Part shown: piece after piece, positions 27,746 to 28,475 of the stretch
Position numbering within the stretch: the stretch's first letter is position 1
Layout: each line of letters opens with the position of its first letter
Source of the DNA: Escherichia phage WPEC1
Length of the DNA stretch: 64,000 nucleotides
Reading direction: 5' to 3' (one strand)
Sequence record: PV659873.1
Notes under the pieces: generated by a model
What the model was told of the DNA's origin: nothing
What the model saw: only the letters and a program-made list of their open reading frames with translations
Database searches by the model: none
Position numbers and translations under genes: made by a program

Positions 27746-27774
27746 TTGACAAGTGTTTATTCGTTTTGTAAAGT
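27746..27774 (+). promoter_or_regulatory. sigma70-like promoter within imperfect inverted repeat
   Basis: TTGACA, 17 nt, TG-n-TAAAGT; -35 sits in ATAAATAC-CTTGACAAG-TGTTTAT dyad. Confidence 0.4.
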
Positions 27775-27803
27775 GAGAATACAGTAATAGTTTAGGAGTG
27801 GTT

Positions 27804-28475
27804 ATGAAAAAGTTTGTTGTTTACAGTCGTCTTTCTAAACAGAAAAAAGGTGAGGCACAATATGGTATGGAGAGCCAAGAGAACGATATCCGTTACTTCT
27901 TAGACTCTGTGCCTGATGCTGAAGTTATTGGTCAATTTTCTGAATACTATTCGGGTAAGGGCGATTGGAAGCAACGTAAGGAACTGGTCAAAGCGGTTGA
28001 AATGTGTAAAGCTACCGGAGCAACTTTATTGGTAGCTAAAGTTGACCGCTTGGGTCGTAACAACGCCTCTGTAGCAACTCTTCTGGAGATGATCGATGTT
28101 AAGATAGCCATCATGCCAGACGCAGATAAAATGGTTATACAGCTTCTATCTGTTCTGGCTGAACAAGAAGTTAGAGGTATTGCTGATCGTATTAAAAAGG
28201 GTCTTGCTGTAGCAAAAAGCAAAGGTGTTTTATTAGGCAGTGCTAATCCTAAAACTGCCGCTGCACGTAGAAAAGGAAAAATGGAATACAACTCTGTTAA
28301 AGCCGACGCTTTTGCAGAGACATTTCGTGAACGTTTGGAGATCCTTAGAGATTTAAATACACCTTACAAAACTATTGCTGAAAAATTCAATAGTAAGAAA
28401 ATAGCAACAGCACGTGGTGGTAAATGGGATGCTAAAACTGTTTCTCGTTTGTGTGCCAGACTTAACATTAAATAG
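27804..28475 (+). CDS. serine recombinase (resolvase/invertase family)
   Basis: N-terminal YSRLS with catalytic-serine context, VDRLGRN motif, C-terminal HTH-like segment. Confidence 0.8.
   Translation: MKKFVVYSRLSKQKKGEAQYGMESQENDIRYFLDSVPDAEVIGQFSEYYSGKGDWKQRKELVKAVEMCKATGATLLVAKVDRLGRNNASVATLLEMIDVKIAIMPDADKMVIQLLSVLAEQEVRGIADRIKKGLAVAKSKGVLLGSANPKTAAARRKGKMEYNSVKADAFAETFRERLEILRDLNTPYKTIAEKFNSKKIATARGGKWDAKTVSRLCARLNIK

Follow-up and report, generated by a model that had tools for sequence, protein, structure and literature searches.

A predicted small serine recombinase encoded as an accessory early gene by phAPEC8-like virulent Escherichia phages

At positions 27804 to 28475 of a 64,000-nucleotide stretch of Escherichia phage WPEC1 (sequence record PV659873.1; this whole stretch is referred to below as the window) lies an ORF that, judged by its conserved residues, profile matches and modelled fold, is a genuine, intact small serine recombinase gene, strand exchange itself being predicted. 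In our overall explanation the product is a compact recombinase, encoded by an accessory early gene and performing a resolvase-like reaction, and we regard the chances of this explanation being right or wrong as evenly balanced. For the type of reaction taken alone we propose, tentatively and by analogy with other systems, that it would be resolvase- or lox-like, which seems more likely than inversion or integration. The puzzle posed by the gene is why virulent phages should retain an active-looking site-specific recombinase under purifying selection, and it has a practical side in that phAPEC8-like phages are put forward for therapy as strictly lytic agents, so that an intact, conserved serine recombinase in them deserves to be clarified or at least reported.

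The window is a mis-ordered assembly of a Phapecoctavirus, that is, a phAPEC8-like virulent E. coli myovirus of ~150 kb belonging to the Stephanstirmvirinae. A BLAST map against phAPEC8 showed it to be non-collinear with every clean genome and to consist of a mosaic of reference segments (74294->71170, 132062->118707, 61660-61808, 7352-31918, 40648-50230, 140147->140026 and 74747-85863 in phAPEC8 coordinates). The 2.5 kb around the recombinase gene are 98-100% identical to at least 62 Phapecoctavirus genomes, and the region is 100% identical in phages WPEC2, WPEC4 and WPEC6. The literature searched yielded no publication on the WPEC phages. The features of the region, all on the + strand, are as follows.

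27736..27761, + strand: imperfect dyad AATAAATACCTT-GA-CAAGTGTTTATT, spanning the A-rich upstream element and the -35 hexamer and running into the spacer
27746..27774, + strand: predicted sigma-70-type early promoter, with -35 TTGACA at 27746-27751, a 17-nt spacer and -10 TAAAGT at 27769-27774
27794..27798, + strand: ribosome-binding site AGGAG, 5 nt upstream of the ATG
27804..28475, + strand: serine recombinase gene, 223 aa plus stop, ortholog of phAPEC8 gp216 and phi92 gene 053
27804..28118, + strand: catalytic domain, residues 1 to ~105, with Y7, R9, S11 (nucleophile), E47, R58, D81, R82 and R85
28128..28220, + strand: helix E, the dimer/tetramer interface helix of serine recombinases, residues 109-139, from the AF2 secondary structure
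28248..28460, + strand: predicted C-terminal helical DNA-binding domain, residues 149-219, four helices

The recombinase reading frame starts at the ATG at 27804 and its stop codon ends at 28475. A preliminary description made from the sequence had pointed to a small serine recombinase ORF with the motifs YSRLS and VDRLGRN (residues 7-11 and 80-86), lying within the early genes and ending in an HTH-like region, and on each of these points it was borne out, the phage being virulent. The Pfam Resolvase profile PF00239 matches residues 5-142 (E=5.2e-18, 66 bits against a gathering cutoff of 23.3) and PHROG 125, 'DNA invertase', matches at 2.6e-32, both at a level far beyond what chance would produce. 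In an alignment of 42 relatives with identities down to ~30%, Y7, R9, S11, R58, D81, R82 and R85 as well as Q25 are invariant, and alignment with gamma-delta/Tn3 resolvase equates R9, S11, R58, D81, R82 and R85 with gamma-delta R8, S10, R45, D67, R68 and R71, while the position of gamma-delta D36 is occupied by E47. The dN/dS ratio is 0.19 against phiWec181 and lower (down to 0.06) against more distant orthologs, for which dS is saturated, a pattern pointing to purifying selection on the gene. None of the curated NCBIfam equivalogs YneB, XisF, Mpi and CcrB came near its cutoff.

The AF2 model of the protein (pLDDT 89.9) comprises a catalytic alpha/beta domain, a long helix E and four C-terminal helices, and helix E aligns with that of gamma-delta resolvase, including E122, D128 and R129. 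What places the protein in the serine recombinase superfamily is the PF00239 score, the catalytic serine with its arginine/aspartate set, and an alpha/beta fold followed by this long helix. Foldseek matched the model to Bxb1, Sin, gamma-delta, TP901-1 and phiC31 (Sin, gamma-delta and TP901-1 at probability 1.00); Bxb1, the best full-length match, and other serine integrases align over the full length of the recombinase. At the C-terminus a weak match to PF07508, 'Recombinase', covers residues 187-216 and profile positions 19-48 of 102. The same profile matched this region in 22 of the 42 relatives and PF20552, 'Recombinase-like HTH', in two, and no member of the family of 42 matched HTH_7. The C-terminal ~75 aa are thus best read from these matches as a Recombinase-type HTH that goes back to the initial portion of the Recombinase domain found in large serine recombinases.

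This layout sets the protein somewhat apart from each of the familiar groups. With gamma-delta/Tn3 resolvase and Sin it has in common the catalytic fold, the residues and helix E (E-values 3e-6 to 2e-4, target-normalised TM ~0.7), and by analogy the reaction type is likely to be shared too, but the C-terminus is of PF07508 rather than HTH_7 type and the loop before helix E is seven residues shorter than in the small resolvases. The multi-subsite res of about 90-120 bp that goes with Tn3, gamma-delta and Sin has no counterpart beside the phage gene, with which just 68 nt of upstream sequence travel, and of those phiWec181 conserves the -35 and -10 elements only. The large serine recombinases (Bxb1, phiC31, TP901-1, A118) show a like N-terminal RxS...Q...S/E.Q pattern, and the C-terminal helices of the phage protein match the start of their Recombinase domain. 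Large serine integrases, however, exceed 400 aa and possess a full Recombinase domain, a zinc-ribbon and a directionality-controlling coiled-coil, whereas zinc-ribbon and coiled-coil domains are absent from the 223-aa phage protein and its Recombinase domain is not complete. Hin, Gin, Cin and Pin are likewise small, phage-borne and dependent on serine catalysis, but the gene studied here has no adjacent invertible segment, inverted ~26-bp sites or nearby tail-fibre genes, and no HTH_7. In the IS607-type serine transposases an N-terminal MerR-like HTH precedes a C-terminal catalytic domain, an order that is reversed in the phage protein.

The gene is preceded by an intergenic region of 70 nt that holds TTGACA, TAAAGT and AGGAG. 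A consensus scan of the window for promoters returned 46 sites against 43.6 expected and is uninformative by itself; support for the promoter comes instead from comparison. The annotated host-dependent early promoters of phAPEC8 show the same layout of A-rich tract, TTGACA, N17 and TAnnnT, both hexamers are kept in phiWec181 although the spacer has diverged, and TTGACA-N17-TAnnnT stands directly upstream of the orthologs in phi92, a Klebsiella phage, Vibrio 1.170.O and ICP1. It is therefore plausible that the recombinase is transcribed from a standard early promoter recognized by the host RNA polymerase.

Over the -35 element there is indeed an inverted repeat (AATAAATACCTTGACAAGTGTTTATT, 27736-27761, -68 to -43 from the ATG), as the preliminary description had reported with coordinates ~2 nt off, but it is imperfect and no better than chance, and the further proposal that it forms a res- or operator-like site did not hold up. 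Nine of 12 positions pair around a 2-bp core (12-2-12), and one indel is needed under the pairing originally given. Should the dyad be a true recombinase site, it might be an autoregulatory operator, a minimal res/lox-like crossover site laid over the promoter, or both. Its 12-2-12 geometry, its nine pairs and its position do resemble serine-recombinase crossover sites, and with a 2-bp core just 50 of the ~64,000 window positions are equally symmetric; when cores of 0-3 bp are allowed, however, an equal or better dyad occurs in 11% of random 80-nt windows and at 4 of 19 early promoters of phAPEC8. The early promoters of phAPEC8 share an A-rich upstream element, and it is this element that makes up the left arm. 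The right arm is not kept in phiWec181, with which DNA homology starts exactly at 27736, despite a protein that is 74% identical overall and similar in its C-terminal HTH (residues ~186-223; residues ~147-170 are more diverged). Dyads upstream of the other orthologs lie at different positions. A 5.8-kb Klebsiella plasmid relative does have a 16-2-16 dyad at -67 to -34, a similar distance from the start codon, and because of this we keep the operator or crossover-site interpretation as a minor one and an improbable one; the dyads upstream of the Klebsiella and Synechococcus plasmid relatives show no sequence similarity to the phage region. No second copy with seven or fewer mismatches was found in the window or the complete phAPEC8 genome, so that a search for partner sites of the dyad came back empty, and a scan of both with the 26-mer allowing eight mismatches gave chance-level matches only. 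Where DNA is multimeric or replicating, a resolvase or Cre/lox-type reaction needs no more than one site per genome, and for that reason the absence of a second site is not decisive against recombination. On the comparative evidence the apparent dyad is most simply a side effect of the promoter, whose upstream element is A-rich and whose spacer is T-rich.

The gene itself is already known, being annotated in public records. The protein of phAPEC8, gp216 (YP_007348417), carries the note 'putative site-specific recombinase', and the identical protein occurs in ~60 public genomes under the labels resolvase, serine recombinase, recombinase family protein, DNA invertase and hypothetical, some copies being wrongly labelled 'methionine ABC transporter ATP-binding protein'. 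Two papers on the genus say that no recombinase is encoded, and the literature searched (phAPEC8, phi92, ICP1 and the small serine recombinases of lytic phages) contained no functional study of the recombinase from any member of the clade. By tblastn, full-length relatives are present in 162 phage records, with the following identities to the window protein.

Phapecoctavirus: 99% or more
phiWec181 / phiWec188: 74%
phi92-like Justusliebigvirus, gene 053 'DNA invertase': 57%
Klebsiella Stephanstirmvirinae: 55%
several ~130-kb Vibrio phages: 35-39%
ICP1 (three 2017 DRC-type records among the matches listed): 30%

In phAPEC8 and the ~60 Phapecoctavirus copies it is the same gene, at 99.6-100% identity and with the same promoter and neighbours. 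The Justusliebigvirus and Klebsiella orthologs match over their full length and have the same domain layout and a TTGACA promoter of their own (between phi92 and phAPEC8 the DNA-binding domains are only about 57% identical), but differ in location: in phi92 and the Klebsiella phages the gene sits on the other transcription arm, in a cluster between the methyltransferase/gp054 genes and the gp052/HisRS-like/NinI/DprA genes, and the corresponding intergenic slot of phAPEC8 (32713-32759) holds a terminator only. Between the window and phiWec181 the genes flanking the recombinase are unrelated, and in ICP1 the gene lies in a stretch of genes that fall outside the reference phage's original GP numbering. 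Among the neighbours of the recombinase no conserved partner gene was seen, DUF7202 in the upstream 70-aa ORF being the sole match, and neither terminal repeats nor target duplications were seen at the edges of the unit. These comparisons present the recombinase as an accessory unit of one gene and its promoter, placed differently in different genera. In Schickermooser the first ~230 nt of the gene contain six indels, the remainder being 99% identical, and only the C-terminal part is annotated in the record. This copy is probably a pseudogene, sequencing error being the possible alternative, and if the indels are real one lineage at least would be able to form plaques without the recombinase.

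Outside phages, relatives are present in 109 plasmid records, of which 103 cover at least 80% of the protein, with identities of 35-40% among the matches listed. Plasmid pMaD11 (5.8 kb) encodes RepA, ParA and a relative of the recombinase, and in plasmids of 5.8-6.4 kb (including those from Klebsiella and Synechococcus) the relative is the only recombinase, while temperate relatives adjoin a separate tyrosine or large serine integrase. A small Rep/ParA plasmid with a sole recombinase is the usual setting of a multimer-resolution enzyme. It is because the closest full-length non-phage relatives are the only recombinase on such small plasmids, and because in temperate elements the relative is a second recombinase, that we favour a resolvase-like reaction. 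Under this proposal the recombinase would be made straight after infection, would bind its site as a dimer and would catalyse conservative site-specific recombination; acting in a resolvase- or lox-like manner, it might recombine directly repeated copies of a single site, either within multimeric or concatemeric phage DNA during replication or between one genome copy and another. In searches of phAPEC8 for dyad copies and repeats no recombination site was identified.

Several points besides this missing site weigh against a resolvase-like role. The plasmid relatives are only 35-40% identical to the phage protein and their own resolvase role is itself deduced from context; a Tn3-type res would not fit into 27736-27803, the only sequence conserved together with the gene; it is not obvious why a phage that packages its genome from concatemers should need to resolve multimers; and Schickermooser, if its indels are real, does without the gene.

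A compact clade that joins the catalytic domain to a Recombinase-type HTH is kept as a self-promoted early gene in strictly virulent large myoviruses (the Stephanstirmvirinae, several Vibrio phages and some ICP1 isolates), and such a clade might have a dedicated, undescribed function in the lytic cycle, either lox-like processing or hot-spot exchange at a single site, or a site-specific attack on host or competitor DNA. We would call this possible but doubtful. In a separate reading the target of the enzyme would lie outside the phage altogether, in the host chromosome or in a competing prophage, satellite or plasmid, and the recombinase would serve as a takeover, anti-defence or competition factor. 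The gene is accessory, has a host-type early promoter and varies in presence and place, like many phage counter-defence genes, and no site was found in the phage genome; this reading is nevertheless unlikely, as nothing speaks for it positively, PADLOC gave no match for the recombinase and there is no conserved partner gene.

Less probable again is a selfish or relic gene, that is, a cassette moving itself between phages or a remnant of a temperate ancestor, without a role in the lytic cycle. It would fit the different positions in related genera, the sharp homology boundaries and the decayed Schickermooser copy, but the dN/dS values (0.06-0.19), together with catalytic residues that do not vary from one virulent lineage to another, indicate selection for activity, the unit lacks flanking terminal repeats or target duplications, and the protein lacks the zinc-ribbon and coiled-coil of an integrase. 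Nor are there prophage copies: a search of 5,426 complete E. coli genomes with the gene and its promoter gave no match. Large serine integrases integrate at attB, whereas for the phage gene neither attP/attB evidence nor any prophage copy in these genomes was seen. Integration is unlikely because of this missing E. coli match, the missing directionality domains and the presence of a separate integrase beside the temperate relatives, and the preliminary description was correct, for the clean reference genome, that there is no integration module and that the recombinase is not beside tail-fibre genes.

Those genes lie ~60 kb from the recombinase in the clean reference genome. A search of phAPEC8 for inverted repeats of at least 18 nt returned terminators and one 38-bp palindrome and no others (short degenerate sites being below the reach of the search), and the direct repeats of phAPEC8 are early-promoter motifs. 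Three markers keep their relative orientation in ~20 genomes. Beside relatives of the recombinase at 12 IMG/VR loci, in a Vibrio-type prophage and in a P. aeruginosa prophage, invertible segments were sought and no consistent inverted-repeat architecture was seen. Inversion is unlikely because suitable inverted repeats are lacking, marker orientation is constant and the tail-fibre genes are so distant.

The window does contain two inverted-repeat loci, 3046-3432 and 16744-17283, with perfect repeats of 75-80 nt, and the preliminary description had drawn attention to a site-specific recombinase in the same genome. The coincidence is real in the window, but as biology it falls away. Both loci coincide exactly with two of the window's jumps between distant reference coordinates, and each is a fold-back in which one reference strand runs downward and is followed by two tandem ~155-nt copies of the same stretch in opposite orientation. 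Alignments of other Phapecoctavirus genomes stop exactly at 16823 and at ~3126, window 16400-17700 occurs as contiguous sequence in no record, and neither locus is present in any clean Phapecoctavirus genome. The WPEC4 record contains a 6-kb chain of blocks of 149-164 nt, all from the same few junction points, and in it a 13.4-kb block, 100% identical to window 3433-16823, has a different join partner. A common motif at the assembly junctions, a possible trace of recombinase action, was sought and not found. As both loci are made of ~150-nt blocks, about one read length, we infer that they are artefacts of short-read assembly, neither biology nor substrates of the recombinase, and the suggested tie between the two is refuted. 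A DNA invertase flipping a phage segment between inverted sites, possibly these two loci, is accordingly the least probable reading, and a very improbable one: PHROG 125 and several GenBank records say 'DNA invertase' and the window has its perfect repeats, but these are fold-back mis-joins, phAPEC8 offers no suitable repeats of 18 nt or more, marker orientation is constant in ~20 genomes, the gene is far from the tail fibres, HTH_7 is lacking, and with the NCBIfam Mpi invertase model the protein reaches 22.6 where the cutoff is 272. Perfect inverted repeats, however striking, can be pure assembly artefacts, as the WPEC1 window shows, and it is unfit for the mining of structural features unless these are checked against a clean genome.

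The two inverted-repeat loci of the window (3046-3432 and 16744-17283), which the preliminary description had linked to the 223-aa serine recombinase of the early gene block (window 27804-28475, plus strand), are most likely fold-backs from short-read mis-assembly. Both have the layout X-(spacer)-Y-X'-Y-X', with perfect arms of 75-80 nt and a tandem unit of ~155-158 nt, and both sit exactly where the window jumps between far-apart coordinates of phAPEC8, the clean Phapecoctavirus reference genome, in which their repeat units are the unbroken stretches 71088-71249 and 118626-118783. 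The window also holds additional non-collinear joins:

Window 43110/43112, non-collinear join
Window 52372-52528, non-collinear join
Window 3432-3493, non-collinear join

The non-collinear joins lead from phAPEC8 31918 to 40648 and from 50230 via 140147 and 140026 to 74747, and the same junction points are the source of the 149-164-nt blocks that make up a 6-kb chain in the deposited record of the related phage WPEC4 (39200-45600). The WPEC assemblies are 155-159 kb long compared with ~150 kb in relatives, and they appear to be scrambled. Three short stretches (window 6786-7773, 35634-36012 and 63641-63658) gave no megablast match to phAPEC8; they lie within blocks that are otherwise collinear with it and are probably ordinary strain-specific gene replacements.

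Just beyond the part of the genome represented in the window, the reference has one further feature:

phAPEC8 5512-7022, gene-free 1.5-kb region, strand-biased (A/C-rich)

Within it lies a 38-bp near-perfect palindrome (6144-6181), the sole long palindrome in the phAPEC8 genome. The region is a possible origin or packaging/terminus region.

The recombinase ortholog of phage Schickermooser (2500-2770) carries six small deletions (1, 1, 7, 1, 2 and 7 nt) clustered within the catalytic-domain coding region; its promoter and C-terminal two-thirds are intact. Two readings fit: a pseudogene, or a sequencing problem confined to this stretch. The 70-aa ORF at window 27521-27733, which immediately precedes the recombinase gene, encodes a DUF7202 protein over its full length (E=1e-36). 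This ORF, or the recombinase itself, is wrongly labelled 'methionine ABC transporter ATP-binding protein' in several GenBank records. Dispersed across the early block, on either side of the recombinase, are six paralogous ORFs of ~105-125 aa each:

Window 17287-17655, early paralog
Window 21961-22275, early paralog
Window 25182-25508, early paralog
Window 25947-26267, early paralog
Window 28866-29249, early paralog
Window 30189-30527, early paralog

None of the six matched Pfam, and their pairwise identity to the two blastp queries used was 29-51% where detected. The gene downstream of the recombinase in phage phiWec181 looks like a further member of the group.

One GC-rich hairpin, AACCCGCTTCGGCGGGTT between runs of A and T, occurs repeatedly and in either orientation:

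Window 34642-34663, hairpin
Window 39378-39399, hairpin
Window 54612-54636, hairpin

It resembles an intrinsic terminator that works in both directions and is likewise repeated in phAPEC8 (23466, 28192 and 140162).
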